From positions 726,647-790,646 of the forward strand of contig CP066688.1 in NCBI GenBank assembly GCA_016432425.1: a stretch of DNA of 64,000 nt. The letters run 5' to 3'. Positions 3,462-30,705 of the stretch are shown here, one piece after another. The notes beneath the pieces were generated by a model. That model saw nothing but the letters and a program-made list of their open reading frames with translations, did not search any database and was not told the origin of the DNA. Made by a program: the position numbers and the translations under genes. Each line of letters starts with the position of its first letter. The first letter of the stretch is position 1. The DNA is from Candidatus Daviesbacteria bacterium. Its GTDB lineage: Bacteria; Patescibacteriota; Microgenomatia; Daviesbacterales; UBA10151.

Positions 3462-3462
3462 C

Positions 3463-10875: not shown

Positions 10876-10945
10876 TTTTTAAAAAAGCTGCTACAAGAAT
10901 TAAGTTTCTAAATACATACTTATACATTTTTTAGTCCTAAAGCAT

Positions 10946-11064
10946 AAGCAGAGCTTGATACTTCGTATTAAGCAGAGCTTGATTTCTAGCAAGCTCGAAA
11001 TTAGACTAAATCAGGTAATAGACCGTCAGATAAGCAGAGCTTGTCTTCGAATAAGCAAAGCTTT
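10946..11064. repeat. cluster of four copies of 12-mer AAGCAGAGCTTG (iteron-like)
   Basis: Exact copies at 10946-10957, 10970-10981, 11032-11043; variant AAGCAAAGCTTT at 11053-11064. Each is a mini-hairpin AAGC-AGA-GCTT. The same 12-mer recurs in tandem 27-nt repeats at 30613-30684. Confidence 0.7.
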
Positions 11065-11270
11065 CCTTTTTCTGATGAAAAACGTAGGAACAATCTGATA
11101 AACTCTGGCAGTCTGGCTAAGACCTCGTCAGAAGCTCCAGACCGGATACCCTCGTCCGAAAAGTGACGAATAGCTTGATACAGCGGGCTAATCTTAGGGT
11201 TTAAGTTTAACATCTTTGTTCCAAATCTTCGAGCCTAAATCTTTAACTAAGAGATCGGATTCACACCCTT

Positions 11271-11711
11271 TTATCTTAAACTAATTGAAAGACTACCTAA
11301 AGATATAATTACCTGTGTTGCGACCCCCCAGAAGGATGAAGTTTCTCTCTGGATGGCACAGTGCCAATCATAATACCCCTTGAATAGTTTATTCTTTAAA
11401 GAAGGTTTCCAAATCATACCAATACTATCAAAGTCAGGTATATTTGCTGCAAAAGCTGTAAGCCAAACAGTATTAGCTGTAATTTGACTATGAGTACTAA
11501 TGATATTTACTAAGAAAACTGCTAGCGTTATATCTATGGGAAGTCTTATCCACGTTTTGTATGTGATTTTATAAGGATAAAGGATCTCTTGCCAATGAGG
11601 AATAGAGTCTAAAATGAAGTGACTACCAATCGCCAGAGGAATTGAAAGAGCAGGGTTTGGCACCAAGACTGCTATTGTGGCCCCAACTAAAGAATGTGGT
11701 GTTGTTAGCAT
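11271..11711 (-). CDS. membrane-bound metal-dependent hydrolase, YdjM/DUF457-like
   Basis: N-terminal HSLVGATIA and LDSIPHW motifs resemble the DUF457 H...(F/A)S and DxxH patterns. Several TM segments. Confidence 0.4.
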   Translation of the reverse strand: MLTTPHSLVGATIAVLVPNPALSIPLAIGSHFILDSIPHWQEILYPYKITYKTWIRLPIDITLAVFLVNIISTHSQITANTVWLTAFAANIPDFDSIGMIWKPSLKNKLFKGYYDWHCAIQRETSSFWGVATQVIISLGSLSISLR

Positions 11712-11825
11712 GTGATCAATTATCTCACTTTTCCCCTTCCATAGCGCGATAATCTTTCATCAGCTTGTTAAAATGGATGAGGACCTGATCCAAAACGGGC
11801 GCTAAATAAGAATCGTCCCCCGTTC

Positions 11826-13139
11826 TTAAAAACCATTAATTAAAACCACCGGCTCCGGGTGTTTATTGGAAGGGTCGCTGTGGCCACTACCTAAAATTTC
11901 TGCTAAAGCCTTCAGGCTGTCCCTGACCTGGGTCCAAGTAGCTCCCGGGTTTGATTTTAAATACAGGGCTGCAGTTCCAGCTACATGAGGTGAGGCCATG
12001 CTGGTTCCGCTGATGGATTTATATCTACCTCCTACCCAGGTGGAATTAATGCTCACTCCCGGCGCTGCCAAATCTACCACAGATCCAAAGTTAGAAAAGC
12101 TGGCAAAAGTATCATCTGCCCCGTAAGTGGTGGCAGAGCCCAAACCTCCAGCCAAACCATCTGAATCACTCAAAGCAGAAACTGTGATGAGAGCATCATC
12201 ATAAGCAGCAGGCACCATCAAACCGGCATCCTGGTTGCTGTTGCCTGCAGCTGCCACATAGGTTATCCCTGCCGAGGCAGACCTGCAGATAGCCTGATGT
12301 AGAGCATCCTGATTTGAGCTGCCGCAGTTATTATCACTTTGTCCGCCTCCTCCCAGGCTCATATTGGCAACTTTAATATTAAACTTAGAGGCATTTTGGG
12401 TCACCCAGTCAATGCCGCAAATTACCGAAGACCAGGTTCCACTGCCACGGGAGTCTAAAACTTTAACTGCCATCAGTTTGGCCTGAGGGGCTACCCCTAC
12501 CACTCCCAGATTATTTTGCAGGGCAGCAATTGTCCCGGCCACATGGGTGCCGTGGCCGTTATCGTCATCACCTTTTCTTAATGGTCTGATGCAGTTCACA
12601 TTGGCCAAAATATTGCCTGCCAAATCCGGATGGTCCAGGTCAATACCGGTATCAATGACTGCCACCCCGATACCATCACCATAATTATTAAGCTGGATGC
12701 CGTTAATTCTTCTGATGCCGGTAGGAGTGGATTGGACAGCAGTTGTGCGGTGACTTAAGGCAAAAACTTTTTTATCCTGGGAGATAAATTTTACCCTGGA
12801 ATCCTGTCTGATCTGCTCAATTTTTTGATCAGTAATATTGGCTGAGAAACCTTTAAGGGGCTTTGAGTATTTATGTTTAATGCTGATTTGGTGCTGGCCT
12901 TGAAGCTGATCAGCCACCTCAGCAGGATTTTGTACCTCATCTTTGAACACCACAATATACTCGCCCGGGATATTCACAGAAATATTTCCTTCTTGAATTT
13001 TTGATTCTCCCAAGTTCCCCTCAGCGCTGTTGTTTGAGGTATTAAGGTTAAGATTAATATTGGTCTCAGTAGCTAAAATTGGCGCAGCAAGGAAAAGATA
13101 GAGGAAGGAAGCAAAAAGCAGCAGAGCAGTCTTAAACAT
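11826..13139 (-). CDS. secreted subtilisin-like serine protease (peptidase S8) with I9 propeptide
   Basis: Catalytic triad motifs VAVIDTGID (Asp), HGTHVAGTIAA (His), GTSMASPHVAG (Ser). N-terminal signal peptide plus inhibitor-I9-like prodomain. Confidence 0.9.
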   Translation of the reverse strand: MFKTALLLFASFLYLFLAAPILATETNINLNLNTSNNSAEGNLGESKIQEGNISVNIPGEYIVVFKDEVQNPAEVADQLQGQHQISIKHKYSKPLKGFSANITDQKIEQIRQDSRVKFISQDKKVFALSHRTTAVQSTPTGIRRINGIQLNNYGDGIGVAVIDTGIDLDHPDLAGNILANVNCIRPLRKGDDDNGHGTHVAGTIAALQNNLGVVGVAPQAKLMAVKVLDSRGSGTWSSVICGIDWVTQNASKFNIKVANMSLGGGGQSDNNCGSSNQDALHQAICRSASAGITYVAAAGNSNQDAGLMVPAAYDDALITVSALSDSDGLAGGLGSATTYGADDTFASFSNFGSVVDLAAPGVSINSTWVGGRYKSISGTSMASPHVAGTAALYLKSNPGATWTQVRDSLKALAEILGSGHSDPSNKHPEPVVLINGF

Positions 13140-13225
13140 GTTGATTTCTGTATTATACCATTTATTACAAATCCCTTACTTGATTTAAATATGTTCTTTT
13201 ACTCATTCAAGGTAATGTTAAATAA

Positions 13226-13831
13226 ATGTTTATTTCCAAGTTAAACTTAAAAGAGCCGGGAGCAACTTACCTGCCGATTTTTAATGCAAATGCATTATTT
13301 AAAAAAATCTTAATTGCGGCACTAATTATTGCAATTTTGGGGGGAGCAGGTTATCTGGTTAGTAGATTTTACGACACAGGATCTCAAAACGCTTCTCCAT
13401 CTTCATCCTCAGTCAAATCCCAGAGGATTTCTTTGTCCGAGAGTTTCGAAATCCCAACCGGGCTGGAGGGGAAAGATGCAGGAGCCCCTCTTAAGGTTAG
13501 TTTTCAGCGGGCCCAACTTGCCAACCGCATCTTCATCTCCGGTAAACCGGTGATGGCCAAAGATGGCACCAAATTCTTAATGCTAAACTTCCTTTTGGAA
13601 AACAGTAACAGCAAGGCTTTAAATGTTAAAACTACTGATTTGATCAGACTGATTGACCAAAACGGCAAGAAGTTTGCCCCCAGCTATTTTAATAAAGGAA
13701 AACCTTTGGCTGCTGACTCAACCAAAAAAGATACCTTAGGGTTTTTGGTACCTGACAATATTAAGGAGTTTAAGATTCAATATGGCACTATTGACGGCCC
13801 CAAAAAACTACTGGAGCTAAAATTTAACTGA
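13226..13831 (+). CDS. hypothetical membrane-anchored secreted protein
   Basis: N-terminal TM (ILIAALIIAILGGAGYLV) then a Ser-rich linker and a beta-rich domain. No recognisable motif. Confidence 0.4.
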   Translation: MFISKLNLKEPGATYLPIFNANALFKKILIAALIIAILGGAGYLVSRFYDTGSQNASPSSSSVKSQRISLSESFEIPTGLEGKDAGAPLKVSFQRAQLANRIFISGKPVMAKDGTKFLMLNFLLENSNSKALNVKTTDLIRLIDQNGKKFAPSYFNKGKPLAADSTKKDTLGFLVPDNIKEFKIQYGTIDGPKKLLELKFN

Positions 13832-13842
13832 CACTTCAATTT

Positions 13843-14001
13843 CACTTAAGTGCTATAGAAAATTATTACCGAACTCTTACTACAACATTATTACTTTTTA
13901 AACAGCAGACTTTAATATAGTAAAAGCTATGAGTTATACGGTTATCTGTTCGTCATAGCTTAAGTTGCCAGCGGAGGCTGTCCTATTTAATCAAAGTAGG
14001 G
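13843..14001 (+). promoter_or_regulatory. structured leader/regulatory region upstream of the repeat-protein operon
   Basis: Perfect 10-bp palindrome CACTTAAGTG (13843-13852). Hairpin AAGCTATGA...TCATAGCTT (13914-13952). Long imperfect hairpin GCGGAGGCTGTCCTA...TAGGGCAACCTCCGC (13961-14001). Strong SD GGAGGTGA 8 nt before the ATG at 14112. Confidence 0.35.
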
Positions 14002-14111
14002 CAACCTCCGCTTCAAAATCACCAAACTACAGGTGATGGCGGACTTGGGTCTTAAAACGCTTCCCTCTTTAAAAGACTTGAGATTTTTAAGTGGAAGGAG
14101 GTGATTTATAG

Positions 14112-15752
14112 ATGTTAAAAAAATGGCAAAAGATTCCAGCAGCTATAGCTATGGGAGCAGCCACTCTGGCATTTGCTTTAACCCCAGTTTTAGCTGTTGA
14201 TGTAACTAGCACTAATGAGATGACTGGCTCAGGATCTACCAATACTACCACGACCGATGTCACCAATACCCAGACTGTGACTAATGATAATACCTCAGTA
14301 GTCACCAATACCTTTACTATCACTGCCACAACCGGCGGTAATAGCGCCTCGGACAATACCGGGGATGGGGAGGTTGGCAGCGGTGATGCAGCAAGTAGTG
14401 TCACTTCTGATACAACCAGTAATGTAAACACTACTGATTTGTCAACAGCAGGTACTATGTCGGTAGATTCCGCCAATTCAGTGACCGGTTCTTCCTCCAC
14501 TAATACAACTGACGTAACAGTGACCAACGATGCAACGGTGGTTAACACCAATGATCTGGAAGTCACTAATACGCTGGATTTGTTATCAGACACCGGAGGA
14601 AATACTGCAGATAGCAACACTGGTAATGGCACTGCCTCCAGCGGCGACGCATCTGCAAATGGGGATGTTTCTACAACCGGCAATATCAATGATACCACCG
14701 TATCAATGGCAGCTGATCCGATTGATGTCTCAAACGACACCACCGGATTTGACTCCTTAAATACTGTCTTGGTTGATGTCAGCAATACTGTGACTGTCAT
14801 TAATGATAATGCACCAATAGTGCCTACTACGATCACCAATGATATGAGTTTAACCTCACTCAGCGGTGGCAACAGCGCTGATGGCAATACCGGAGACGGT
14901 AGCGTTGATGGCGGTGGTGCGGATACAACAGTCAGCCTGGCAACAGATGTTAATTCCAACATGGTAGATATTGGGGCAGGAGGAGATTTGGATATTAATA
15001 TGTCCAATGACACTACCGGCTCAAGCTCAACCAACAGCATGGATGCATCTGTGACCAATGATCTGACTGTGGTTAACACCAATGATGCAGATATCCTAAA
15101 TGATATCAGTATGCTCTCTGATACGGGCGGAAATTCCGCATCAGGTAATACCGAGGATGGGTCTGTAGACAGTGGTAATGCCGGGTTAATGGCAGATGTG
15201 GCAACCACAGCCAATTCCAATGACGTGGATACCGGCGGAGCCTTTGGCGATATAGACGCCATGCTATCCAATAGCGTAACGGGCTCTTCATCAGACAACA
15301 CCATCGATTTGAGCGTTGACAACACCAATACTGTCTTAAATGACAATGTGGTGGATGTTGACAATTTGCTGGATATTATCGGATTGACCGGTGATAACAG
15401 CGCCGATGCCAACACCGGCGACGGTTCTGCCTCCAGCGGTGATGTGGATGTGGAAGCTGAGGTCACAACAGATGTCAACTTCAATACCACAGATGATATG
15501 GCAGCTGGGGACGTGGACGTGGATGAAGAAAATACCATGACCGGTTCCGGCTCAACCAATGACATCACGGATACGATTACCAATACCTTAACTCTGGTAA
15601 ATGACAATGATTCCGACGTCTTAAATGACGCCACCGGAACATTGGACACCGGCGGAAATAGCGCCGATGGCAACACTGGGGACGGTGAGGTGGCAACCGG
15701 GGATGTTGATTTGGAGTTAGACTTCACTACTAATGAAAACATGAACATGTAG
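14112..15752 (+). CDS. secreted Thr/Asn/Ser/Asp-rich tandem-repeat protein (about six ~88-aa repeats), no anchor
   Basis: Sec signal peptide MLKKWQKIPAAIAMGAATLAFALTPVLA preceded by SD GGAGGTGA. Recurrent core TGGNSA(S/D)(D/G)NTG(D/N)G within a longer repeat N..TGS.STN...D..VTN..TVVNTND. The antisense 559-aa ORF is a compositional shadow. Confidence 0.75.
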   Translation: MLKKWQKIPAAIAMGAATLAFALTPVLAVDVTSTNEMTGSGSTNTTTTDVTNTQTVTNDNTSVVTNTFTITATTGGNSASDNTGDGEVGSGDAASSVTSDTTSNVNTTDLSTAGTMSVDSANSVTGSSSTNTTDVTVTNDATVVNTNDLEVTNTLDLLSDTGGNTADSNTGNGTASSGDASANGDVSTTGNINDTTVSMAADPIDVSNDTTGFDSLNTVLVDVSNTVTVINDNAPIVPTTITNDMSLTSLSGGNSADGNTGDGSVDGGGADTTVSLATDVNSNMVDIGAGGDLDINMSNDTTGSSSTNSMDASVTNDLTVVNTNDADILNDISMLSDTGGNSASGNTEDGSVDSGNAGLMADVATTANSNDVDTGGAFGDIDAMLSNSVTGSSSDNTIDLSVDNTNTVLNDNVVDVDNLLDIIGLTGDNSADANTGDGSASSGDVDVEAEVTTDVNFNTTDDMAAGDVDVDEENTMTGSGSTNDITDTITNTLTLVNDNDSDVLNDATGTLDTGGNSADGNTGDGEVATGDVDLELDFTTNENMNM

Positions 15753-15762
15753 TGAAGATTTC

Positions 15763-15794
15763 CCAAGGGGGTTTGTGGAAGCCAAACCCCCAGG
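15763..15794 (+). terminator. intra-operon hairpin (attenuator/partial terminator) between repeat genes 1 and 2
   Basis: CCAAGGGGGTTTG-tggaagc-CAAACCCCCAGG, a 9-12 bp GC-rich stem 10 nt after the stop of gene 1. The downstream tract is only moderately U-rich. Confidence 0.4.
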
Positions 15795-15836
15795 GAATAA
15801 ATATTCTTCGAGCGAAGCGGGAAGTTACTTAAAATT

Positions 15837-18290
15837 ATGAATAAATTAGCTGTAAACTTTACTGCCTTAATATTAATAATTAGTCTAGGTTTAAATGGGC
15901 CTGTCGGGTTAGTATTGGCTCAAGAAGCTACTCCTAGTGCGGAAAGTTCCACTACCGAAAATTCCACCACCGGCGCTAATTCCACCAACACTGCCACTGC
16001 AACTGTAGACCAAACTTCTACCACCACTAACACCAATGATGCCATTGCCGTTAACACTACTGATGCACTTTCTGCCTCCGGGGATAATGCAGCTTTAGAT
16101 AACACGGGTGATGCTTCAATCACCACCAACACTGCTGCAACCTCTGCTACTACCTCAACTGAAACTAACCAAACTATTTGGGAACCAATGCCCTGGACTA
16201 CTTGGACAGGTGAGGGTGACTGGCAGACCAGAGCAGAAAACTCCACCACCGGTGCTGACTCTACCAACACCGCCACAACTAGTGTTTCACAAACAGATAC
16301 CCTAACCAACACCAACACTGCTGATGTGACAAACAGCGCTACTACTACTTCTTTAACAGGCGCAAATGTTGCCTCGGATAATACCGGCTCAGCCACTATC
16401 AGCACCGGGAATGCCTCCACCACCACCGCTACTCAAACTACTGCTAATACTAACATTGTTTCCTGGACAGGTGAGGGTGACTGGAGCAATCTGTGGAACG
16501 GTGAGGCAGTTAATTTTCTGACCGGTGCTAACTCCACCAATACTTCAAGTGTAGATTTTACTAAAGTGCTGGATGTTTTAAATGAAAACGGGGTGAATGT
16601 GGATAATTTGATTGCCTCCTTTGCCACCAGTGGAGATAATATTGCCTCGGATAATACCGGAAATGCCACTATTACTACCGGTAGCGCCTTAGTCCTTTCC
16701 ACTTTATTTAATCTGGTTAATACTAATATTTTTGGTACTGATATTATGGAGATTCTATACCAGGATATCTTCGGCACCTTTTCCGGAAATATTGACCTAT
16801 CTTTCGGCAACTTATTTTCTTTGCCCAACTTAATCTCCCAGCCTTTAACCCTAAATTCCAGCAACGATACCACTGGTTTTAACTCGGATAATACAGCCAC
16901 TACTGTAGGCAGTTTCACTGTGGATATCACTAATGATAATAGCGGTGTATTAAATAATGCCCTAGATTTATTTGCCATAACCGGCTCCAACACTGCCTCG
17001 GATAATACCGGAAACGTGCTAGTGGAGACAGGAAATGCGGAGGTTATGGTTAACTTAGTCAATTTCCTAAATACTAATATCTCCACCAATGAGCTTTACC
17101 TGGGGGTAATTAATGTCTTTGGGGACTGGACCGGGAATTTGATACTGCCTGAATATAATGGGGTAACCAGTAGTTCCCCGCTACCGCTACTTTCATCAAC
17201 AAAAAATATCCAAACAGGTGCTACTTCAGATAATACTGCTACTATGACCACAGATAACATTTTGACTGTAGATAATACTAACAATGCTACTGTTGATAAC
17301 GTATTCAACTTATTTGCTGAAACAGGAGGTAATAGCGCCTCTGATAATACTTTATCAGCCAGTGTTACCACCGGTTTGTCCCAAGTGGAAGCCAACCAGG
17401 CTACCTTTGCCAATACTAACGTGGTAAGTAATGCTCCCTGGTGGTTAGTTATAATTAACAATTTAGGCACTTGGGTACCGGTACTACTGCCTCCTTTAAA
17501 CATCGGGACACAGCTGGTTTTGGATTTAGATGATTTGGGAATGAATATTCCCAGCAGCAGTGAAACTTTAGATTTAACTGCCGCTAATAATCTTACCGGT
17601 AGTTTATCCAGCAATGAGGCAAGTGTCACTTTGAATTCTGAGACTAATATTACCAATACTAATGTGGGAACAATTATTAATGATGTTAGCGCTTTAGCTT
17701 CAACAGGAGGCAATGAGGCTAGTAGAAATACCGGATCGGCCACAATTGCCAGTGGTAATGCTTCTATCTTGGTTAATACTTTAAACTTTCTCAATACTAA
17801 TGTAATAGCACCCTCGATACTAATATCAATAGTTAATGTTTTCGGCAGCTGGATGGGAGATGTTTTAAGCTTTGGAACACAAGCACCTCTTCCGGCCGTT
17901 TCTGCCCCCGACCAGCCTATTGCCCAGGCAGAAAACTCGGGAAATATCACCAATGCTCCAGCCAGTCCTTCCAACCCCACCACATCTTCCGAGACAAATT
18001 CATCCCAGAGTTCACCAAGTGTAAATTTTAGTTCTGCCGCACCCCTTTCATCCGTGTCTAATAACCAAAGTACCACCCCTCCCAACTTTAATACCCAAAG
18101 CAATATTCAAAACCAAGAAGGCGAAGTTTTGGCATTTTATGAGGAAAAAGGTGGTGGGGACGGAGGATTCCCCTCTCAAGTAAATGAGGAAACACCGGAT
18201 ACAAAAGGAACTCTTATCCTGATGCTAATTGCCCTGACAGCTGTTTTGTTCATCTTAACAAGAGTTAGCAGAATAATTTCACGAAAATGA
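15837..18290 (+). CDS. secreted Thr/Asn/Ser-rich tandem-repeat protein with C-terminal TM anchor
   Basis: Signal peptide MNKLAVNFTALILIISLGLNGPVGLVLA. Repeats SGDNAALDNTGDASITTNTA, TGANVASDNTGSATISTGNAS, SGDNIASDNTGNATITTGSA, TGSNTASDNTGNVLVETGNAE, TGGNEASRNTGSATIASGNAS. C-terminal GTLILMLIALTAVLFILTRVSRIISRK. TGA stop overlaps the next ATG (ATGA). Confidence 0.75.
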   Translation: MNKLAVNFTALILIISLGLNGPVGLVLAQEATPSAESSTTENSTTGANSTNTATATVDQTSTTTNTNDAIAVNTTDALSASGDNAALDNTGDASITTNTAATSATTSTETNQTIWEPMPWTTWTGEGDWQTRAENSTTGADSTNTATTSVSQTDTLTNTNTADVTNSATTTSLTGANVASDNTGSATISTGNASTTTATQTTANTNIVSWTGEGDWSNLWNGEAVNFLTGANSTNTSSVDFTKVLDVLNENGVNVDNLIASFATSGDNIASDNTGNATITTGSALVLSTLFNLVNTNIFGTDIMEILYQDIFGTFSGNIDLSFGNLFSLPNLISQPLTLNSSNDTTGFNSDNTATTVGSFTVDITNDNSGVLNNALDLFAITGSNTASDNTGNVLVETGNAEVMVNLVNFLNTNISTNELYLGVINVFGDWTGNLILPEYNGVTSSSPLPLLSSTKNIQTGATSDNTATMTTDNILTVDNTNNATVDNVFNLFAETGGNSASDNTLSASVTTGLSQVEANQATFANTNVVSNAPWWLVIINNLGTWVPVLLPPLNIGTQLVLDLDDLGMNIPSSSETLDLTAANNLTGSLSSNEASVTLNSETNITNTNVGTIINDVSALASTGGNEASRNTGSATIASGNASILVNTLNFLNTNVIAPSILISIVNVFGSWMGDVLSFGTQAPLPAVSAPDQPIAQAENSGNITNAPASPSNPTTSSETNSSQSSPSVNFSSAAPLSSVSNNQSTTPPNFNTQSNIQNQEGEVLAFYEEKGGGDGGFPSQVNEETPDTKGTLILMLIALTAVLFILTRVSRIISRK

Positions 18291-19201
18291 GAAATAAGTT
18301 AATTAGTTTAATTATCTTGATCGGATTGACATTTGCTATACCCGGATCCGCGATGGCAGATACCGAAGTGACATCGTCTAATTCCTCCACCGGTGCTGAC
18401 TCTACCAATACCACCAGCTCAACTGTCACCAATGATAACTCTGTTGTCAATAATAATACGTCAGTAGTTACCAATACCATTGATATTACGGGCTCAACAG
18501 GAGCCAACAGCGCCTCAGCTAACACCGGTGACGGTACAGTTGGTAGCGGCTCAATAGACGGCAATGTGGAGGTAAGCAGTACCGATAATCAAAATACTAC
18601 CCTTTTGACAGATAGCGGCAGCATCAATATTACCCAACAAAATACAGAGACCGGCAGTAATTCAACAAATTCCTCCAGCATTAATGTCAGCAATATCAAC
18701 ACCGTTACCAACACTAATGATTCTGTCAAAGAAAATAACTTAATTGTCGATCTTTCCACCGGAGGCAATATAGCAGATGGAAATAGCGGTGGAAGCAGTA
18801 TCACCAGCGGAGATATCACATTTAATGTCGGAGTCACTAATGTGGATAATATCAATGAAACAAATATTGGCCCACCGGCTCCGGGAGGAGTTTCTCAGCC
18901 ACCTGAGGGCCAGGGAGGACAACAGCCGCCACCCCAAGTAGGTGGCGGAGGAGCAGCCATAGCACAAGCCCTGGGAGGGCCAACAGAGGTTACTTCTGCC
19001 CAACCTGCAGGTGAAATATTGGGAATTTCCTCCTTGCCAATTACCGGCCCCACAATAAATCTTTGGATTTTAGCGCTGCTGGCTGCCTCTGTGGCATTGT
19101 TAGGTTGGTTTATGATTAACCGCTCCTACGCTTGGGAAAAAGCCTTAATTAGAAAAAGACTCTCCTTTTCAATTAAAACCCCGCCGAGAAGGCGGGGTTA
19201 A
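18287..19201 (+). CDS. secreted repeat protein with LPXTG (LPITG) sortase cell-wall anchor
   Basis: Signal peptide with AMA-DT cleavage region. Repeats TGANSASANTGDGTVGSGS and TGGNIADGNSGGSSITSGD. Pro/Gly-rich stalk. C-terminal LPITG + hydrophobic segment + RKRL tail is a canonical sortase sorting signal. Confidence 0.75.
   Translation: MRNKLISLIILIGLTFAIPGSAMADTEVTSSNSSTGADSTNTTSSTVTNDNSVVNNNTSVVTNTIDITGSTGANSASANTGDGTVGSGSIDGNVEVSSTDNQNTTLLTDSGSINITQQNTETGSNSTNSSSINVSNINTVTNTNDSVKENNLIVDLSTGGNIADGNSGGSSITSGDITFNVGVTNVDNINETNIGPPAPGGVSQPPEGQGGQQPPPQVGGGGAAIAQALGGPTEVTSAQPAGEILGISSLPITGPTINLWILALLAASVALLGWFMINRSYAWEKALIRKRLSFSIKTPPRRRG
19179..19197. terminator. GC-rich hairpin overlapping the operon stop codon (possible bidirectional terminator)
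   Basis: CCCCGCC-gagaa-GGCGGGG at the end of 18287-19201. It sits between convergent genes (DUF378 on the minus strand). No clean T-run on the plus side. Confidence 0.35.
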
Positions 19202-19230
19202 TAATACCTTAACTATAACTCTTCCCTAAA

Positions 19231-19428
19231 TTATTTCTTTCCACCATCCATTAACAACATGTAAACTTTATACACTCCTACCACACCGATGACAATATAA
19301 ACTACTTTAGTTAAAGTAGTACCCGTACCCAAGATTGCTTCAACTAAATTCAGGTTGAGCAAACCAACTAGTCCCCAGTTAACAGCTGCTATAGCTACTA
19401 CCCAACCGACTAAAGCTTTGGTACCCAT
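19231..19428 (-). CDS. DUF378-family small membrane protein
   Basis: MGTKALVGWVVAIAAVNWGLVGLLNLNLVEAILG matches the DUF378 signature (..ALNWGLVG..). 65 aa, two TM helices. Confidence 0.7.
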   Translation of the reverse strand: MGTKALVGWVVAIAAVNWGLVGLLNLNLVEAILGTGTTLTKVVYIVIGVVGVYKVYMLLMDGGKK

Positions 19429-19499
19429 TTATATCACCTCCCCTCTATACTCCATTTTAGACACAAAAATATGGATGGTGTCAAATGGTAAAATTACTT

Positions 19500-22400
19500 T
19501 TAACGAAGAGAACGTGGAGTTGGCACTGAAGGTCTAACCGCTCCGATAATCTTTTCTAGACTTAAAAGATGTTGTTGTGGCGTATCGAATACCCGCAGTA
19601 TTCCCCATAAACCATCATTTAAATGATTGAAAAAGACGTTACATTTGAATAAAAAGTCCCCCGCAACACTCCCCGCACCTCCACCTCCCAAAAGCGTCAA
19701 ATTAAAAGCCCTGCCGGTATTAATACCTCCTTGAGTGTTTAGTATCGTTGATTGCGGATCATTTTGCTCATGCATCCAACTGTGTCCATGAAGATTAAAA
19801 GCATGTCCCCGAGGTTTATCTTGCGGATTAAAAACCCTCAAGACAACCGGATCACCTTTGTAAGCTTGAAATACCGGCGTGGCCGGGTCATTGTGTCCCA
19901 CTTCCGGATTGGAACTGAAAATCCATGCCTCTTCGCCCTCATGGGCAAGCCGGTTGGCAAAACGCTCTGCCCGGTAATTAATACCTTTATGCCCTTGGTC
20001 TTCCGGATCTGTCTTTCTTGGGGTATTGGAATCCTCTATATCCTCATGGCCTTCTTTAAGATCAGGAATTGGCAGATTGTTTTTACTAAAGAGGTTTAGA
20101 CCATCCTGAAAGGCAATTACAAACTCCCGAAAAGCTTTATATTTTCTCTCCGCTTGATCAAAATACTTAATCACTGCCGACTCCCCGCTTTCTGTTGGAG
20201 TACCTTTTTGAGGATCTAGATAAGTGGCAAATTTATGTTCAACTATTAAGCCCCCAAAAAGTCCATGGTGGCGATGCCCGCGGATGTCCCCAAAATCCGC
20301 CAAATTTATAATCCCCAAATTTTTAGTATCAACGTACCATTTGTAGCTAATGGTTTCCCCTGGTGCTATTGTCTGATCAAAATTATATCCTACAGTTGCC
20401 CCATCTGAACCAACCACGTCATATTTTAAAAGATGGGGGTGTAGGGAAACTCTTTTGCTGGTATTCCACCGAGGATTACTATCCTCTTTCTTTTCTTCTT
20501 CCTCCACACCACAGGAGTCAGCGCCAAACGCCTGATTGCAAACCGTCCCATCAGCAAGTTTAGGAAAAATATCTTCCGGCGGATGGGTATCACCCACATG
20601 GGGTTTAATCCCTTCTGTCGGCAGTAAATTTTTCAGTGTGATATTAATACAATCTCCTTCATTAGCCCGGATAAATAAAGGTTTATCAGAAGGAATTGGT
20701 TTATTGGCTTTGTCCAATAAAGTATACATCAGGCCATTGGGATCATGGTCTCCCTCGCCGTTATAGACAATTTTTTTAGAGATAGCTCCTAATTTGTAGT
20801 TTCGTTGTGGCGCTCCCGGCAAACAAGGATTTCCCGGACTCTTAGCTTTTTTCAAAGGTTCTCCTGGTTTTAAAGCTGGCCACTGCGAAGTGGCAACCGG
20901 AGGCTTATTTTGGGGCAATGGTTTTAGATCAGGAGTTTGTGAGGCAAAAACCCTCATAATTCCCCACATTCCGTTCCATAAATCATCCATCGGTAAAGAT
21001 CCATACAAATAATCGCCAGAAGATCCGGCCCCACCCAACAAGATTTGAGTTGCTCCGTGTATCATCTCTCCAATTTCCCTGGCTCTTTCTGCACCCGATA
21101 ACCTTTTAACCAATTTTGTCCCCTGAAGCTCAAAATTAAAAAACTCCGCAATGTTCATTGATTGGGCATCATACAAATTAGACTGGGGATCATCGGGCTC
21201 ATGTAGCCAACGATGGCCATGAATATTAAAATTATGTTGTTCTTCGTGAGCGCCTTGCACGAGACGGACCACAATCGGATCCCCCCGGTAAGCTTTAAAA
21301 ATCGGCGTGGCCGGATCTCCAAAAACAGCGGAACTAAAAATGTAGGCAGGATCATTTTTATTGGCAATTGAAGAAGGCAGATGCGGGTTGATTCTGATTT
21401 GGAAAGGTTCGTTGCGGTAGTTAACAGTCATGGTCCCCTGGTCTGCGCCATAATCTCCAGCTCCATCCATACCTCTGGGGGAAATCGGCACTATATCTTT
21501 CTCTGCAGGCCCTTGGTTTCCGGGTAAATCCGGAGCAGGCCTAAAGCCAGGCACAAAATCAGCGTAAAAAATACTAAATTCCCTAAAACTGGTACCCTTA
21601 GGAACAATAATATTAGCCGTCGTTCCCACCCCATCGCTGGAAGAACCATCTGGTTTTTCCCAGGTAGAACCATCTGGCTCCACATTCCAGGCAGCATAAA
21701 GACCATGCTGCTGGCCGGTGTTGGGAAATTGATGATCGTGGAAAAATACTGTCCGAAGATTCATATCCACAAAAAGCCTGCTGCCAATTGTTTGACCGGC
21801 CAGCGCTGACTGATCATAATTCCAACCGACCGAAGTTCCGTCAGAACTTAATAAATCGTACATAAAAAGATGCGTATGAACACTTAATTCGCTCATTGGT
21901 CCTTGATGATGAAAAATCTGGTCTTCAAACAGATCTTTTTCCCCATCTCCATGGATATCTACCGGCACAGGTTGGCCTACATTTTCAGGATTATTTAAAT
22001 CATCCTCATGGGTAAGGTTGGTAAAACGGATATTGGCGCATTCACCAACCTGGTTACGGATGACATAAGGTTCAGGCTTTTCTTTGCCGGATAAAACATC
22101 TTGAAGATGTGATTTTTCCACGTATAGTTTTCCGTCGGGATCTTGCCACCCACCTGTCCCGTTACCGCTTTCATTCATCACTAACGCTTTAAATGTGGGA
22201 TGGTCCGGATCAGCATCAATCGCCACCGGGTGATAGGTTCTTTCTTTAGCACCTGTTGGGCAAGGGTCCTGATAAAAAACGCCAGGTGTGGTATCACTCC
22301 CGGGTCGGCCGTTATTGCCGGCCATATTGGTTTTTTCCAACTCGGTTGGTTTTCTGACGGTATCTCCAGGGCGCCTGAGCGGTTTGTTATTTGCATCAGT

Positions 22401-24017
22401 TTGATAAGGGTCTTCAACCACAAAATTTGGCGGACGGTAAGCTTTTTGTAGAAACTGGCCTTTGATAAACAAAGGGAAACCCGGTTGTACCTCGGTGGGA
22501 GCAACTGTCAGTCCTTTTCTGTCTGGTAGTTCCTGCAGGGTTTCGATTGGTGTTCCGTCAGGATAAACTTGGTTATATTCTGTATTGCGAAGTTTGTCAA
22601 AGGTCCGCAAGGTCCCCCAAAAACCTTGGGCAAAATGAGGGTAAAGATGGCAGTGAAAAATAGCATCACCTGGTGATCCGGGAGCGGCGCCAGCCCCCTT
22701 CTCATAGCGTAACTGAAAAGTTTGTCCCGGCCCAGTCAGTTGAACATCTAATCGAGTGGAGTTGGGATCATCCGGTTCATGAAACCAGCGATGTTGATGT
22801 TGATGAAAAGTATGATGTTCTTTTTCTCCGGGATGAATAATACGAAAGCGCAGCGGATCACCCACATAAGCCTTGGGTATTAGATTGTCACTATCAACAA
22901 CAATTTTCCCACCCTCTGTTTTAGAAACCAGCTTGCCATGGTCTCCAAACGGCCAGGATTGCAGATGTACTTCCTCACTAAAACATTTAGCTGATTGATC
23001 AGGAGCGATCTCCTTTAAGTCGGTATCAAAACCGTCACAGAAATTATCTGTTGGTAAAATAACTCTCCCGTTTGGCAAAGTCACAATTTTACCGGCTCGA
23101 TGATCTAAAATAGCCCGCAATCTATTACGGAGCGGTTCAGAACGGTAATTAAAACCGAAAGTGGAGTCTTCTAAATTAGTGGTAGGAAAAGTCGGATGCG
23201 ATCCTGAAGCATCAATAATTTCTTCATTTTCATCTAAAAATACCAAAGCGTAATCTCTAAAGTCATTGGGATTTTCTTTATCTCCTCCGGGTACTTCAAT
23301 ATCTGCAAAAACCGGCGTCTCGACACCGATTAGCTTCCCTGCAATATCTTTTAAAATTTCAGCTCCGGTAACAGGATTTCTCCAAACAGAACCTTTGGGT
23401 TCAACAATAAATCCCCCGTAAAGACCAATCTTCATGGTGTTTTTTTCACTGGCAGGATTAGTATTGGCCATATCATTAATGGGGAACTGGCCTTCGTTTT
23501 CGGCATACCAGACGTAGACTCTTTCCTCTCCTGTGGCAGCAGTGGTATCATTGTTGAGGCCGACGCGGCTGCCGTCAGAGGTCTTTGGGTCATAAGATAA
23601 ACCTGCTATTGTCATACCTACCCGCTTATCCGGAACCTCATTTTTAAAACGGACTACCACACAATCCCCCGCATTGGCCCGAAGCACCAAAGGAGAAGCC
23701 AAATTTTTATTGCCTAAAATGCTGTCTTTATTGGGGAAAGCCTGAGGGTTATTTAAAGCGTAGATGTTAGCTTTTGTAAAACGGTCACCCCAACCATTTA
23801 GAGGTAAGTCTGATACTTCAAAAGCGGCTACATCATAATAAATAGTCCGCTCTGATTTTTTATCCTGACAGATTTTAGTATTTCCAGTCTCTGGATGATC
23901 GGATGAGTAAAGTGCCAAAACATGATGTTGTTTGAAAAGAAGAAAAAATACAGTTATTAAAAAGCCCACAAAAAGTAGGCATATTCTAAGCTTAAAATAA
24001 TTAATATTTAAATGCAT
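19500..24017 (-). CDS. giant (1505 aa) membrane-anchored multicopper-oxidase-like protein, three fused laccase-like modules
   Basis: N-terminal TM (ICLLFVGFLITVFFLLF). Module A has degenerate L1/L2 (MTIAGL; IGLYGGFIVEP without His) but intact L3 HTFHQHQHRWFHEPDDP and T1/T3 motif FHCHLYPHFAQGFWG. Module B has HTHLFMYD, FFHDHQF...HGLY and FNIHGHRWLHEPDDP; its L4 is lost (YGSLPMDDLWNGMWG). Module C has LHPHLLKYD, GHRHHGLFGGLIV and FNLHGHSWMHEQNDP; its L4 is degenerate (FKCNVFFNHLNDGLWG). Confidence 0.75.
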   Translation of the reverse strand: MHLNINYFKLRICLLFVGFLITVFFLLFKQHHVLALYSSDHPETGNTKICQDKKSERTIYYDVAAFEVSDLPLNGWGDRFTKANIYALNNPQAFPNKDSILGNKNLASPLVLRANAGDCVVVRFKNEVPDKRVGMTIAGLSYDPKTSDGSRVGLNNDTTAATGEERVYVWYAENEGQFPINDMANTNPASEKNTMKIGLYGGFIVEPKGSVWRNPVTGAEILKDIAGKLIGVETPVFADIEVPGGDKENPNDFRDYALVFLDENEEIIDASGSHPTFPTTNLEDSTFGFNYRSEPLRNRLRAILDHRAGKIVTLPNGRVILPTDNFCDGFDTDLKEIAPDQSAKCFSEEVHLQSWPFGDHGKLVSKTEGGKIVVDSDNLIPKAYVGDPLRFRIIHPGEKEHHTFHQHQHRWFHEPDDPNSTRLDVQLTGPGQTFQLRYEKGAGAAPGSPGDAIFHCHLYPHFAQGFWGTLRTFDKLRNTEYNQVYPDGTPIETLQELPDRKGLTVAPTEVQPGFPLFIKGQFLQKAYRPPNFVVEDPYQTDANNKPLRRPGDTVRKPTELEKTNMAGNNGRPGSDTTPGVFYQDPCPTGAKERTYHPVAIDADPDHPTFKALVMNESGNGTGGWQDPDGKLYVEKSHLQDVLSGKEKPEPYVIRNQVGECANIRFTNLTHEDDLNNPENVGQPVPVDIHGDGEKDLFEDQIFHHQGPMSELSVHTHLFMYDLLSSDGTSVGWNYDQSALAGQTIGSRLFVDMNLRTVFFHDHQFPNTGQQHGLYAAWNVEPDGSTWEKPDGSSSDGVGTTANIIVPKGTSFREFSIFYADFVPGFRPAPDLPGNQGPAEKDIVPISPRGMDGAGDYGADQGTMTVNYRNEPFQIRINPHLPSSIANKNDPAYIFSSAVFGDPATPIFKAYRGDPIVVRLVQGAHEEQHNFNIHGHRWLHEPDDPQSNLYDAQSMNIAEFFNFELQGTKLVKRLSGAERAREIGEMIHGATQILLGGAGSSGDYLYGSLPMDDLWNGMWGIMRVFASQTPDLKPLPQNKPPVATSQWPALKPGEPLKKAKSPGNPCLPGAPQRNYKLGAISKKIVYNGEGDHDPNGLMYTLLDKANKPIPSDKPLFIRANEGDCINITLKNLLPTEGIKPHVGDTHPPEDIFPKLADGTVCNQAFGADSCGVEEEEKKEDSNPRWNTSKRVSLHPHLLKYDVVGSDGATVGYNFDQTIAPGETISYKWYVDTKNLGIINLADFGDIRGHRHHGLFGGLIVEHKFATYLDPQKGTPTESGESAVIKYFDQAERKYKAFREFVIAFQDGLNLFSKNNLPIPDLKEGHEDIEDSNTPRKTDPEDQGHKGINYRAERFANRLAHEGEEAWIFSSNPEVGHNDPATPVFQAYKGDPVVLRVFNPQDKPRGHAFNLHGHSWMHEQNDPQSTILNTQGGINTGRAFNLTLLGGGGAGSVAGDFLFKCNVFFNHLNDGLWGILRVFDTPQQHLLSLEKIIGAVRPSVPTPRSLR

Positions 24018-24141
24018 TAAAAAAGGGATTTTAGAAAAATAATTAAGATTTTAGATCTTATTAATTAATTTATCTGGCGCCGCTAATAAACAAATAAGAA
24101 AACTGTAGGAAATTAGTAAAAGTACATAAGGAACTTTTTGT

Positions 24142-24432
24142 TTATCTAGCTATAGTCAATTCCAGTGGGAGAACTATTCCTGCTTGATCTTCAAGATTAC
24201 CCACTCTTTTATTTAGTTTACTAATATTATCTTTATTATTTTCCGTATTTACTGCTATTTGATTCAAGGTTACTTTTTGTGCATCCAAATCTTCTTGTAC
24301 TTCAGTCATATTTTCAGTTAATTTAACAGTTTGCTCCCATAGAGTATCAAGTTTTTTTACAACTGGTTCCAAAGCAGTATTAACCTCTTCCTTAACTACT
24401 CCCCGGATTTGATTTAGATCATCATTAATCAT
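24142..24432 (-). CDS. hypothetical small coiled-coil protein
   Basis: 96-aa ORF with heptad-like charged/hydrophobic pattern (LEPVVKKLDTLWEQTVKLTENMTEVQEDLDAQKVTLNQ). Confidence 0.35.
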   Translation of the reverse strand: MINDDLNQIRGVVKEEVNTALEPVVKKLDTLWEQTVKLTENMTEVQEDLDAQKVTLNQIAVNTENNKDNISKLNKRVGNLEDQAGIVLPLELTIAR

Positions 24433-24548
24433 AGATTTATATTATAAAAAATAACCTTAAGATTCAAGATAGATCATTTCAAATGGTAAAATTGCCCAAG
24501 TTTAAGGTATAATGATTTTGAAATTATCTTGATGGGAGGTGAGGAATT

Positions 24549-24797
24549 TTGGATAAAGTAATAGGTAAAGTAGTCCATTACTATGATAAATTAGGAGTGG
24601 CCATTATTGATCTGGAAACAGGTGGGTTAAAGATGGGAGATCAAGTTAAATTCAAACATGGTGAGGAAGAATTTACTCAGAAAGTGGAATCCTTACAGGT
24701 TGATCATGAAAATGTGGAATCTGTTAAAAAAGGAGATTCGTTTGGAGTAAAGGTTGATAACCCCACAAAACCAGGTACTGAAGTTTATCTTGCTTAA
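24549..24797 (+). CDS. hypothetical small beta-barrel protein (EF-Tu domain-II-like)
   Basis: 82 aa. VIGKVVHYYDKLGVAIIDLETGGLKMGDQVKF...GDSFGVKVDNP resembles translation-factor domain-2 beta-barrels. SD GGGAGGTGAGG upstream. Confidence 0.4.
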   Translation: MDKVIGKVVHYYDKLGVAIIDLETGGLKMGDQVKFKHGEEEFTQKVESLQVDHENVESVKKGDSFGVKVDNPTKPGTEVYLA

Positions 24798-24841
24798 GAT
24801 ATTATATTCGAGAGTAAGTTCATAATCTGTCCAAAACACAT

Positions 24842-24912
24842 TGCGGGATCGTCTAACGGTAGGACAACAGACTTTGGATCTGTTTATCATGGTTCGAATC
24901 CATGTCCCGCAG
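24842..24912 (+). tRNA. tRNA-Gln (anticodon TTG)
   Basis: Acceptor TGCGGGA/TCCCGCA; D-arm GTC-TAACGGTAG-GAC; anticodon stem ACAGA/TCTGT with loop CTTTGGA; T-arm CATGG-TTCGAAT-CCATG; discriminator G. No CCA. Confidence 0.8.
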
Positions 24913-24999
24913 CCCATTCGACTCTGGTTCGACTACTTCGACTGTGCTCAGTACGAGTTCGCTCACCATCGCTCAGGGCTATAGCCGAATTATATAATT
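24910..24999 (+). repeat. 90-bp perfect direct repeat, copy A, starting in the last 3 nt of tRNA-Gln
   Basis: CAGCCCATTCGACTCTGGTTCGACTACTTCGACTGTGCTCAGTACGAGTTCGCTCACCATCGCTCAGGGCTATAGCCGAATTATATAATT is identical to 26110-26199, offset exactly 1200 bp. Confidence 0.9.
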
Positions 25000-25059
25000 G
25001 AATTAATTCAGGATTTAAGTCGAATGGTCCTGAGTGAGCGAAGCGAATCGAAGGATAAC

Positions 25060-30590: not shown

Positions 30591-30596
30591 CATTCT

Positions 30597-30684: not shown

Positions 30685-30705
30685 ATGAACTGTCGGATTA
30701 TATTT

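Follow-up and report, generated by a model that had tools for sequence, protein, structure and literature searches.

The stretch of DNA analysed here (the window, 64,000 nt) is part of the chromosome of a Candidatus Daviesbacteria member, a CPR bacterium. An earlier note on this DNA had listed a subtilase (S8), a membrane-anchored protein (TM201), three repeat proteins (rep546, rep817 and rep304), a DUF378 protein and a giant multicopper oxidase, together with two clusters of a 12-mer repeat. All of these genes and both clusters were found at the positions given there (Table 1), and the tRNA-Gln, GIY-YIG, Fic and polysaccharide deacetylase genes of the wider region were likewise confirmed. A contig from a separate sequencing run (L001) is a base-for-base copy of positions 11093–24887, and the adjacency of the oxidase to the other genes is therefore not an assembly chimera.

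Table 1. Positions in the window of the genes and sequence elements discussed in the text.
Feature	Position	Strand	Remarks
Nucleotidyltransferase gene	10144–10875	+	70 nt before 12-mer cluster 1
12-mer cluster 1	10945–11064	+	Three exact TAAGCAGAGCTTG copies and one degenerate copy
S8 subtilase	11826–13139	-	Pfam Peptidase_S8 3e-51, Inhibitor_I9 8.5e-09; N-terminal signal peptide
TM201, 201-aa single-TM protein	13226–13831	+	First cassette gene
Imperfect 15-bp stem-loop between TM201 and rep546	13971–14011	+	Read from sequence; putative element
rep546 (repA)	14112–15752	+	Secreted, no anchor, six ~88-aa units
rep817 (repB)	15837–18290	+	At least 6 units; C-terminal TM helix, basic tail
rep304 (repC)	18287–19201	+	Two units; LPITG sorting signal
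DUF378 small membrane protein	19231–19428	-	Pfam 2.2e-13; 50.3 bits (cut-off 25)
MnxG-type multicopper oxidase, 1505 aa	19500–24017	-	Multi-domain; N-terminal signal/anchor
96-aa coiled-coil protein, upstream of the oxidase	24142–24432	-	Weak coiled-coil Pfam matches only
12-mer cluster 2	30596–30725	+	27-nt unit, three in tandem (GGTAAGCAGAGCTTGCCATCTGGTGAT)

TM201, rep546, rep817 and rep304 form a co-oriented gene cassette (13226–19201). The TM201-bearing cassette was found in 64 loci, in which the repeat genes always lie 3' of the TM201 homologue and in the same orientation, the order being DUF4352-like anchor, free repeat protein, membrane-anchored repeat protein and LPXTG protein. The offsets in these loci are +0.1–0.8 kb for repA, +1.5–2.2 kb for repB and +4.0–4.4 kb for repC, followed by sortase at +4.3–5.5 kb. 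A sortase gene was present downstream of repC in 7 of the 15 loci with enough downstream DNA to be scored (in L008 the downstream gene matches Pfam Sortase at 9.5e-22); there is none within the 64-kb window. In another Daviesbacteria locus (L079; TM201 59% identical) the cassette occupies a different neighbourhood, without S8 and without the oxidase. The view that TM201 and the repeat proteins constitute a conserved, co-transcribed-looking unit for secreted, fibre-like surface proteins is thus supported, and to this extent the functional unit proposed in the earlier note stands.

The extracellular part of the single-pass TM201 is predicted to be a DUF4352-like beta-sandwich. The match to Pfam DUF4352 is weak (E 5.5e-4; 20.6 bits, under the cut-off of 25.9), and the homologue in L004 carries a PF11611 record. 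The ectodomain was modelled by AF2 with a pLDDT of 85–94, and Foldseek matched it to 4les (2e-06) as well as to YxkC, YcdA, 5bxg, 4eae and YjhA (3cfu).

The three repeat proteins are paralogues, each with a Sec signal peptide, and are built from units of ~88 aa rich in Asn, Thr, Gly and Asp. These units are predicted to stack into a beta-solenoid; the confidence of the model is moderate, and Foldseek returned no significant PDB match to it, the beta-solenoid adhesins Ag43, UpaB, FHA and PfbA being among the fold matches. The family comprises 4,394 cluster representatives and matches no curated model in Pfam or NCBIfam. All of its meaningfully named records are from Patescibacteria, and judged by these sequences the family appears to be CPR-specific, not foreign. 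Conservation of the cassette, secretion and the predicted solenoid-like fold all agree with the suggestion of the earlier note that these are surface-fibre proteins.

A strong Shine-Dalgarno sequence, GGAAGGAGGTGAT, stands between the stem-loop and the ATG of rep546. The mature protein is extremely acidic, with 88 acidic residues and no Tyr, Lys, Cys, His or Arg; acidity is a family-wide trait (median 61 Asp+Glu). rep817 contains Trp-rich and hydrophobic inserts and a Ser/Thr/Pro/Asn-rich stalk preceding its C-terminal helix. Its orthologues at the same cassette position are 35–37% identical over 450–570 aa; a TM helix with a basic tail closes 49 of the 53 orthologues of repB size, usually after an I-N-L-A-W motif, which rep817 itself lacks. 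The start codon of rep304 overlaps the stop codon of rep817 (ATGA). In rep304 a Pro/Gly-rich linker joins the two units to LPITG, after which the sequence turns hydrophobic and ends in a basic tail, and repC orthologues in the same position carry LPATG, LPVTG, LPITG or LPRTG, then a TM segment with a tail resembling LRLRSGRSPG. By these sequence features, the C-terminus of rep304 is a sortase cell-wall sorting signal.

The S8 sequence displays the triad motifs DTG, HGTH and GTSMASPH. Of 39 loci, 6 have an S8 gene in the 2.5 kb upstream of the TM201 homologue, whereas 632 kb of control DNA has none (binomial P about 1e-8), so that a protease associated with the cassette, as the earlier note had it, does recur. 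In cassette-linked S8 proteins elsewhere the prodomain is of the Fervidolysin type or missing, and their genes run in the same direction as the cassette, whereas the window S8 has an I9-type prodomain and is divergent from it; hence its link to the cassette is weaker than that seen in other genomes. Its orthologue in L077 (62% identity) is located away from a full cassette.

The oxidase is homologous to the solved Bacillus MnxG (9bxa_A; phmmer E 6.6e-187, 627 bits). The aligned stretches jointly span most of both proteins, and the copper motifs HxFHxHxHxW and HCHLYPxF are conserved; the score against the NCBIfam MnxG model (319.7 bits) is nevertheless far under the equivalog cut-off of 3100. 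MnxG of the Mn(II)-oxidising, spore-forming Bacillus sp. PL-12 is shorter (1227 aa), the protein of this CPR bacterium having insertions, and neither an mnx operon nor MnxE/F-like partners were recognised around the window gene. The enzyme would be secreted or membrane-tethered and probably oxidises a metal, Mn(II) being the candidate by homology. Six relatives are 68–81% identical, after which identity falls to 47–50%, and the named relatives outside this group are mostly actinobacterial (Actinomycetota). No cassette genes, S8 or DUF378 were found in the flanks (1.5–7.7 kb) of the four closest relatives (L003, 81%; L132, 78%; L131, 70%; L002, 68%), and the neighbours differ in every relative; L003 keeps the Fic gene (69% identity) while the cassette is absent. 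Conversely, none of 123 cassette loci contains such an oxidase. The oxidase is a stand-alone, separately inherited gene that merely adjoins the cassette, carried by a small Daviesbacteria clade in varying neighbourhoods. DUF378, downstream of the oxidase and on the same strand, recurs in 2–3 of about 120 cassette loci (120–123) and is never adjacent, and no homologue of the 96-aa coiled-coil protein was found in the fetched loci other than L001, which is the same DNA. These two genes are unlinked fillers. We therefore favour, at a probability of about 0.65, the reading that the 12-kb stretch holds independent units, a surface cassette and an MnxG-type oxidase, that are neighbours by chance in this Daviesbacteria genome.

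According to the earlier note, S8 would mature the repeat fibres and the oxidase would cross-link them through Tyr and Lys, as laccases do with spore-coat or cuticle proteins. The genes are indeed contiguous, also in the independent assembly, export or insertion into the membrane is predicted for their products, and S8 recurs with the cassette. The synteny counts given above nevertheless already largely refute a single matrix system of this kind, which we regard as extremely improbable: the shared arrangement of S8, repeat genes, DUF378 and oxidase is not kept in relatives as far as its oxidase half is concerned. The oxidase is moreover convergent with the cassette on the opposite strand and, as an MnxG homologue, is of the metal-oxidase type and not a two- or three-domain enzyme of the laccase type. 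Oxidative cross-linking of rep546 is chemically implausible given its lack of Tyr, Lys, Cys and His; rep304 has a single Tyr and rep817 has four. In sum, the earlier interpretation holds for the cassette and in part for S8, and fails for the oxidase, DUF378, the cross-linking and the bracketing repeats dealt with below.

Mineral-coated surfaces exist in the Bacillus exosporium and in Leptothrix sheaths. A coupling specific to this lineage, in which Mn(III/IV) oxides made by the oxidase nucleate on the acidic fibres and coat the surface, would draw on the MnxG homology, on the 88 acidic and no basic residues of mature rep546 and on the confirmed adjacency of two sets of genes with products predicted to be exported. 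We hold it to be highly improbable. The adjacency is unique to this genome among those examined, acidity is general to a repeat family of which most members have no oxidase neighbour, and MnxE/MnxF-like partners were not recognised. In addition, members of the CPR are as a rule considered to live by anaerobic fermentation (PMC5220378).

Base composition raises the further possibility of a horizontally acquired island, with either the two 12-mer clusters as its limits or cluster 1 at one end and tRNA-Gln at the other. G+C is 0.42–0.46 over 11–24 kb, compared with 0.32–0.38 in the immediate flanks and 0.392 in the whole window; the ends of L001 fall beside cluster 1 (11093) and inside tRNA-Gln (24887), and most of the named outside relatives of the oxidase belong to Actinomycetota. 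However, GC3 is elevated solely in the S8, TM201 and repeat genes (0.38–0.46), that of the oxidase (0.36) being at background. The abundance of Gly, Ala and Thr in the repeat proteins in itself lifts G+C. No integrase, recombinase or transposase was detected in 11–31 kb and no att-like repeats were found; no direct or inverted repeat of at least 10 nt is common to the two ends, and the cassette family is apparently CPR-specific. An acquired island is accordingly highly improbable.

Nor do the 12-mer clusters serve as its borders. AAGCAGAGCTTG is present in six exact copies, all on the + strand (10946, 10970, 11032, 30616, 30643 and 30670), where 0.31 would be expected by chance and none of 100 shuffles reached six; a degenerate seventh copy occupies 11052–11064. 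Cluster 1 lies 70 nt 3' of the co-oriented nucleotidyltransferase gene, and its unit, ATAAGCAGAGCTTGATACTTCGTA, is identical to those of L190 and L219 and matches the unit of a 15-copy array in L158 at 22 of 24 positions. Cluster 2 lies 24 nt 3' of tRNA-Leu, within a 109-nt segment that is flanked by 21 nt of the tRNA-Pro 5' end in perfect duplicate. This tandem-repeat family occurs in at least 120 metagenome contigs, usually directly 3' of a co-oriented gene, and matches no Rfam family. Being dispersed and tied to the 3' ends of upstream genes, the clusters are not island boundaries, and the region does not make up a single functional island. Compared from general knowledge, they resemble the enterobacterial intergenic repeats REP/BIME in their short, partly palindromic motifs and in forming intergenic tandem arrays at many dispersed loci, mostly just 3' of co-oriented genes. 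They differ in the core TAAGCAGAGCTTG, in the unit lengths (24, 30 or 33 nt), in the head-to-tail instead of alternating orientation of the copies and in the lack of a linked RAYT-like transposase.

For the cassette itself, three features suggest that rep546 is the major exported subunit: it lacks an anchor, its ribosome-binding site is the strongest, and its units are the most numerous. rep817 would be held in the membrane by its C-terminal helix behind the long Ser/Thr/Pro stalk, whereas a sortase would cleave rep304 at LPITG and attach it covalently to peptidoglycan. This sortase is presumably encoded elsewhere in the genome, and in many relatives directly downstream. By analogy with the systems below, we infer that rep546 docks end-to-end on the homologous units of its anchored paralogues, so that a fibre or coat grows on the wall. 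TM201, always first in the cassette, is probably an assembly or anchoring platform, and S8 is a possible accessory protease that may trim or release the fibre. The repeat proteins could instead act independently, as adhesins or S-layer-like proteins without co-polymerisation, one free, one membrane-anchored and one wall-anchored, and the adhesins among the fold matches are in keeping with this. We consider it unlikely, since three paralogues are strictly kept in a fixed order with exactly one of them anchorless, and the simplest explanation for this is that the free protein needs the anchored ones in order to be retained.

Co-polymerisation on anchored paralogues has partial parallels in known systems. 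In curli, CsgB nucleates CsgA. There is no sequence similarity to CsgA/CsgB or to Fap, another functional amyloid, and the CsgG/E/F secretion genes are absent here; anchoring is by sortase in a monoderm envelope, and the units are about four times the length of a curli repeat. Sortase-assembled pili (SpaA/RrgB) share with the cassette three structural genes, an LPXTG base-like subunit and, in relatives, an adjacent sortase. Against this, LPXTG is confined to one of the three proteins, no CnaA, CnaB or SpaA domains were detected, the predicted fold is a solenoid, and rep546 has no Lys to act as pilin nucleophile.

The chaplins of Streptomyces are likewise paralogous secreted proteins built on one common repeat domain. 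Some members with additional repeat copies and a C-terminal sortase signal are thought to tether the fibres of the unanchored members (PMC5618241); the long ChpA-C and short ChpD-H would correspond to rep304, with its two units and LPITG, and to the anchorless rep546. The repeat proteins nonetheless have no chaplin (DUF320) domain or sequence similarity, and ~55-aa hydrophobic amyloid domains are replaced by 88-aa acidic, hydrophilic solenoid repeats. Furthermore, the cassette adds a membrane-anchored paralogue and a DUF4352-like partner, and its host is a CPR bacterium. It represents a widespread, CPR-wide and previously undescribed cell-surface fibre gene set, from which a fibre or coat on the wall may be assembled.

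A cassette made up of the membrane protein gene TM201 and the three repeat genes that follow it (repA, repB and repC) recurs well beyond the window. A degenerate nucleotide pattern describing the unit was run on one-genome-per-species contigs and returned at least 120 stretches; within the window it matched 7 of the ~14 units, and shuffled sequence gave no match. TM201 homologues were then collected by HMM iteration over the ORFs of these loci and of three loci from protein look-ups (123 loci); a word-indexed search had retrieved 6 proteins only, and the family size is therefore taken from the HMM iteration. TM201 homologues are present in at least 64 loci, all of which have the repeat genes downstream in the same orientation and at fixed offsets, as summarised in the table. 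In one Daviesbacteria locus (L079, TM201 at 59% identity) RRM, HAD and HhH-GPD genes are found upstream of the cassette, the RRM gene directly so (3173–3469 of that contig), with neither S8 nor oxidase. In another locus, L004, an SdrD_B/SpaA/CLIPPER protein is encoded two genes downstream of the cassette. Many cassette contigs (loci L009–L128) are titled ‘uncultured Gammaproteobacteria’, ‘Pseudomonadales’, ‘Nanoarchaeia’ or ‘Acidiferrales’, and one ‘uncultured Gammaproteobacteria’ record is a 915-kb complete chromosome (OZ246414.1); these non-CPR titles look like placeholder or wrong taxonomic labels.

Genes of the region in the window, and placement of the repeat genes relative to TM201 in related loci
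Feature	Window position	Strand	Remarks	Offset after TM201 in related loci	Orientation to TM201	Length in related loci
S8 subtilase with I9 propeptide	11826–13139	−	Pfam, translation motifs
TM201	13226–13831	+	201-aa single-pass membrane protein
rep546 (repA)	14112–15752	+	repeat protein paralogue	+0.1–0.8 kb	co-oriented	about 370–560 aa
rep817 (repB)	15837–18290	+	repeat protein paralogue	+1.5–2.2 kb	co-oriented	about 630–825 aa
rep304 (repC)	18287–19201	+	repeat protein paralogue; start overlaps rep817 stop	+4.0–4.4 kb	co-oriented	265–409 aa
DUF378	19231–19428	−	Pfam PF04070, 50.3 bits vs cut-off 25
Multicopper oxidase	19500–24017	−	1505 aa

All of the ORFs, domains and repeats named in the earlier note are present in the window, and positions 11093–24887 are identical, with zero mismatches, to an independent assembly of the same DNA (L001), which shows that the gene order was not created by faulty assembly. 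Beyond the oxidase lie tRNA-Gln and genes for a GIY-YIG protein, a glycosidase, Fic, an RRM protein and a polysaccharide deacetylase; the remainder of the window is ordinary chromosome (MetRS, UvrA, UvrB, 13 tRNAs). Promoter and terminator scans of 10.8–24.9 kb gave no more sites than shuffled sequence, and the transcription units are therefore read solely from spacing and orientation. Antisense ORFs of 559, 168, 218 and 335 aa inside the repeat genes (14087–15766 and 15920–18103, both − strand) were dismissed as genes, being most likely shadows of the stop-poor repeat composition. Directly past tRNA-Gln, 24917–25060 holds three TTCGACT repeats, and an inverted pair, CGAGTTCGCTCACCATCGCTCAGGG / CCTGAGTGAGCGAAGCGAATCG, extends into the start of the 102-aa GIY-YIG gene (25024–25332). 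Another large surface protein of 1526 aa, with Disaggregatase-repeat, SpaA_4, SdrD_B and fn3 domains, is encoded at 55184–59764.

TM201 scored 20.6 bits against DUF4352 (PF11611; E 5.5e-4), below the gathering score of 25.9, and its homologue in L004 has a recorded PF11611 match. The ectodomain was modelled with high confidence (pLDDT 85–94), and at probability 1.0 Foldseek returned 4les (2e-06), YxkC, YcdA (4r4g), 5bxg, 4eae and YjhA (3cfu). These are beta-sandwiches of uncharacterised Firmicutes lipoproteins and extracellular proteins, which we take to be DUF4352 members; the modelled fold thus agrees with the sub-threshold score.

The three repeat proteins each begin with a signal peptide and share a unit of ~88 aa with the skeleton N..TG..S.N ... 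N.A.[IV].N.V.A.A.TG.N.A..NTGGG.V.TGDA ... N..N.N, present six times in rep546, at least six times in rep817 and twice in rep304. They matched nothing among Pfam, NCBIfam and PDB sequences. A profile built from rep546 and 34 homologues nevertheless recovered 4,394 cluster representatives at E ≤ 1e-3 (1,323 at ≤ 1e-30) among 1.84 billion, and every source with a meaningful name is a member of the Patescibacteria. The AlphaFold2 model is all-beta (pLDDT 70.5, pTM 0.55) and gave no significant match in Foldseek; the label ‘fibre-like’ is therefore reasonable, with moderate confidence. An RTX/HemolysinCabind beta-roll was rejected, since the Pfam model picked up no GGxGxDxUx nonapeptide repeats. 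In its mature form rep546 has 88 acidic residues (Asp+Glu) and lacks Lys, Arg, His, Tyr and Cys altogether. Family members have a median of 10 Lys and 5 Tyr; lacking these two residues is thus no general feature, and any argument built on it is confined to rep546 of this genome. The rep546 gene is preceded by a very strong Shine-Dalgarno sequence, and upstream of this, in the 281-nt gap after TM201, an imperfect 15-bp stem-loop (13971–14011) is a possible attenuator or processing site, through which expression of rep546 would be boosted relative to that of TM201.

The paralogues differ in their C-termini. That of rep304 consists of LPITG, then the hydrophobic segment PTINLWILALLAASVALLGWFMI and an R/K-rich tail, which marks it as a predicted sortase substrate, and repC orthologues carry LPATG, LPVTG, LPITG or LPRTG at the same position followed by a conserved LRLRSGRSPG-like tail. 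At the end of rep817, by comparison, a stalk rich in Ser/Thr/Pro/Asn leads to a TM helix and a basic tail with no LPXTG, and rep546 has no anchor signal. A TM helix and basic tail terminate 49 of the 53 repB-size orthologues, usually after an I-N-L-A-W motif that rep817 itself does not have. The order I-N-L-A-W, TM helix, basic cluster in repB orthologues (loci L004–L128, e.g. L032 3110–5428) resembles the tripartite layout of a sorting signal and, to judge from these sequences, may be a new one. No sortase gene was found within the 64-kb window; in 7 of 15 relatives with enough flank the cassette is followed by a sortase gene, at +4.3–5.5 kb from TM201.

The cassette thus comprises three secreted paralogues of solenoid type, anchored to different degrees (not at all, in the membrane, or through LPXTG), and a constant membrane partner, frequently accompanied by a sortase and an S8 protease, and it belongs with the sortase-associated surface polymers. 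We propose that sortase would fix repC to peptidoglycan while repB would cross the wall on its stalk, and that abundant free repA would be retained by stacking on the homologous units of its anchored paralogues, giving a fibre or coat. TM201 would serve as the platform, and S8 might process or release the structure. The main rival to this mechanism holds that the three repeat proteins are independent adhesins or S-layer-like proteins. For the proposed assembly from anchored and free paralogues, the nearest functional parallels are the long and short chaplins (PMC5618241) and CsgB/CsgA, systems that the cassette resembles in architecture and fold class only. A curli or chaplin amyloid was rejected, as there was no curlin-repeat or chaplin (DUF320) Pfam match at E ≤ 0.01. 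Similarly, sortase-assembled pili were set aside because LPXTG occurs on rep304 only, mature rep546 is devoid of Lys, SpaA/Cna domains are absent and the fold is predicted to be a solenoid.

The subtilase was examined as the proposed dedicated maturation protease. The window enzyme matches PF00082 at 3e-51 and the I9 propeptide PF05922 at 8.5e-09, and its translation contains the triad motifs DTG, HGTH and GTSMASPH. Among 39 loci with sufficient flank, six have an S8 gene co-oriented and no more than 2.5 kb upstream of TM201, and two more have one close by; none was present in a 632-kb control set, which consisted of environmental contigs with comparable G+C that had been selected on an unrelated feature. 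Even granting the control set one S8, the binomial probability of at least 6 in 39 is ~1e-8, and the association of S8 with the cassette across loci is therefore real. The part of the proposal concerning the window enzyme itself fared less well: it is divergently oriented and I9-type, whereas the cassette-linked S8s of other loci have a Fervidolysin-type prodomain or none, and its 62%-identity orthologue (L077) has no full cassette beside it. The window S8 may plausibly have a dedicated role.

The oxidase, which NCBI lists as a hypothetical protein in a Candidatus Daviesbacteria MAG, aligns over most of its length with the Bacillus MnxG of known structure (9bxa_A; E 6.6e-187, 627 bits), in stretches spanning query residues 74–1492 and MnxG 17–1219. 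The copper motifs in part of the alignment correspond (HTFHQHQHRW to HVFHYHVHQW, FHCHLYPHF to IHCHLYPAF) and further HxH motifs occur in the sequence. Its score against the NCBIfam MnxG equivalog NF041487 is 319.7 bits with a cut-off of 3100; by sequence it is classed as an MnxG homologue, not an equivalog of that model's MnxG. Six relatives share 68–81% identity, on contigs of 38–42% G+C. The next share 47–50%, with Actinomycetota among the named ones, and two contigs carrying such relatives have 57–64% G+C. This drop in identity, together with the jump in G+C, suggests that a small Daviesbacteria clade acquired the gene laterally long ago. The enzyme is of the MnxG kind and its host unusual, and its presence in this clade would mean an unexpected use of oxygen for the group.

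It does not, however, travel with the cassette. The earlier note had asked whether the S8–repeat–DUF378–oxidase order is conserved in relatives, with the oxidase as a possible part of a fibre system. None of the 123 cassette loci listed contains an oxidase, and the four close oxidase relatives with flanking DNA have no S8, TM201, repeat or DUF378 genes beside them; their neighbours are histidine kinase and response regulator, ECF sigma factor, IleRS, PRC barrel and GSDH genes. In L003, the locus of the closest oxidase relative, a 69%-identity copy of the window Fic gene (L003 2–964 vs window 27962–29020) lies ~2 kb upstream of the oxidase; since Fic has been kept near the oxidase, L003 is a true relative in which the cassette is absent. 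The relative orientation of Fic and oxidase is opposite to that in the window, which indicates a conserved neighbourhood with local rearrangement. The immediate neighbours of the window oxidase, a coiled-coil protein and DUF378, fare no better: the 96-aa coiled-coil gene occurs in none of the cassette loci listed, and DUF378, likewise put forward as a member, occurs in only 2–3 of them and is never adjacent. We regard it as very improbable that in this Daviesbacteria lineage the CPR-wide acidic beta-solenoid fibre is functionally coupled to the MnxG-type oxidase, with Mn or another metal oxidised and deposited on the fibre. If true, an ultra-small, supposedly fermentative CPR bacterium would have an oxygen-dependent, mineral-forming cell surface.

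The region likewise failed to qualify as a genomic island. No integrase, recombinase or transposase is encoded in 11–31 kb, and a search for att-like repeats showed nothing of 10 nt or longer common to the two ends of the L001 segment. GC3 is 0.38–0.46 for S8, TM201 and the repeat genes vs about 0.2–0.4 elsewhere, and not raised for the oxidase (0.36), so that composition deviates for S8 and the cassette genes only; total G+C is inflated by the Gly/Ala/Thr-rich repeat proteins. One end of L001 falls inside tRNA-Gln and the other beside 12-mer cluster 1, which is weak evidence of a boundary at best, as graph assemblers stop at repeats.

The 12-mer clusters themselves, taken as brackets, belong to a dispersed repeat family. 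AAGCAGAGCTTG occurs in six exact copies in the two clusters (10945–11064 and 30596–30725) vs 0.31 expected. Cluster 2, between tRNA-Leu and tRNA-Pro, has a 27-nt unit three times within a segment of 109 nt, on whose flanks the 5′ end of tRNA-Pro is duplicated perfectly over 21 nt (TCGGGGACTAGTTCATCGGTA). The arrangement resembles an insertion with target duplication or a scar of replication slippage. A search of metagenome contigs for two cores 8–20 nt apart returned arrays on at least 120 contigs (L133–L252). They are head-to-tail with 2–15 copies, and among the matches listed are mostly intergenic; the distribution of unit lengths has its peaks at 24, 30 and 33 nt. An invariant core is formed by (A)TAAGCAGAGCTTG, and the rest of the unit is uniform inside an array and variable between loci. 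The cluster 1 unit is identical to those of two arrays (L190 and L219) and at 22 of 24 positions to that of a 15-copy array (L158). The arrays match no Rfam family, searching the literature for the 12-mer gave unrelated primer sequences only, and no conserved flanking gene marking a mobile element was seen among the at least 120 arrays. A link to tRNAs was rejected, only 8 of 120 arrays listed lying within 300 nt of one.

Among the matches listed, arrays are co-oriented with both neighbours in 36 loci and in the opposite sense in 13. In 22 of the 36 the upstream ORF stops 0–14 nt before the first core, and in 14 of these its TAA is that of the first unit; the median distance to the downstream start is 53 nt. 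Both window clusters fit this 3′ placement, lying 70 nt 3′ of a + strand nucleotidyltransferase gene (cluster 1) and 24 nt 3′ of tRNA-Leu (cluster 2); they go with their upstream genes, not with the genes that the two clusters enclose. The RRM gene of the window (29200–29466) is 1.1 kb from cluster 2, and homologues at 49–54% identity adjoin arrays in L163, L168 and L196; its product may bind the AUAAGCAGAGCUUG repeats. One metagenome contig with an 8-copy 33-nt array and a tRNA also carries a group I intron (L186 779–997; Rfam 63.8 bits).

Of the single shared system first envisaged, the cassette is real and more general than supposed, but the oxidase, DUF378 and the bracketing repeats found no support. 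Several secreted proteins are co-localised here and yet are not one system, which calls for caution in such inference. Members of the CPR/Patescibacteria are believed to live in attachment to other cells, yet to our knowledge type IV pili are the only surface structures of theirs described at the molecular level. Although the repeat family comprises thousands of cluster representatives, it has no curated family or described function, and the cassette offers a concrete candidate for a fibre, coat or attachment organelle on the CPR cell surface.
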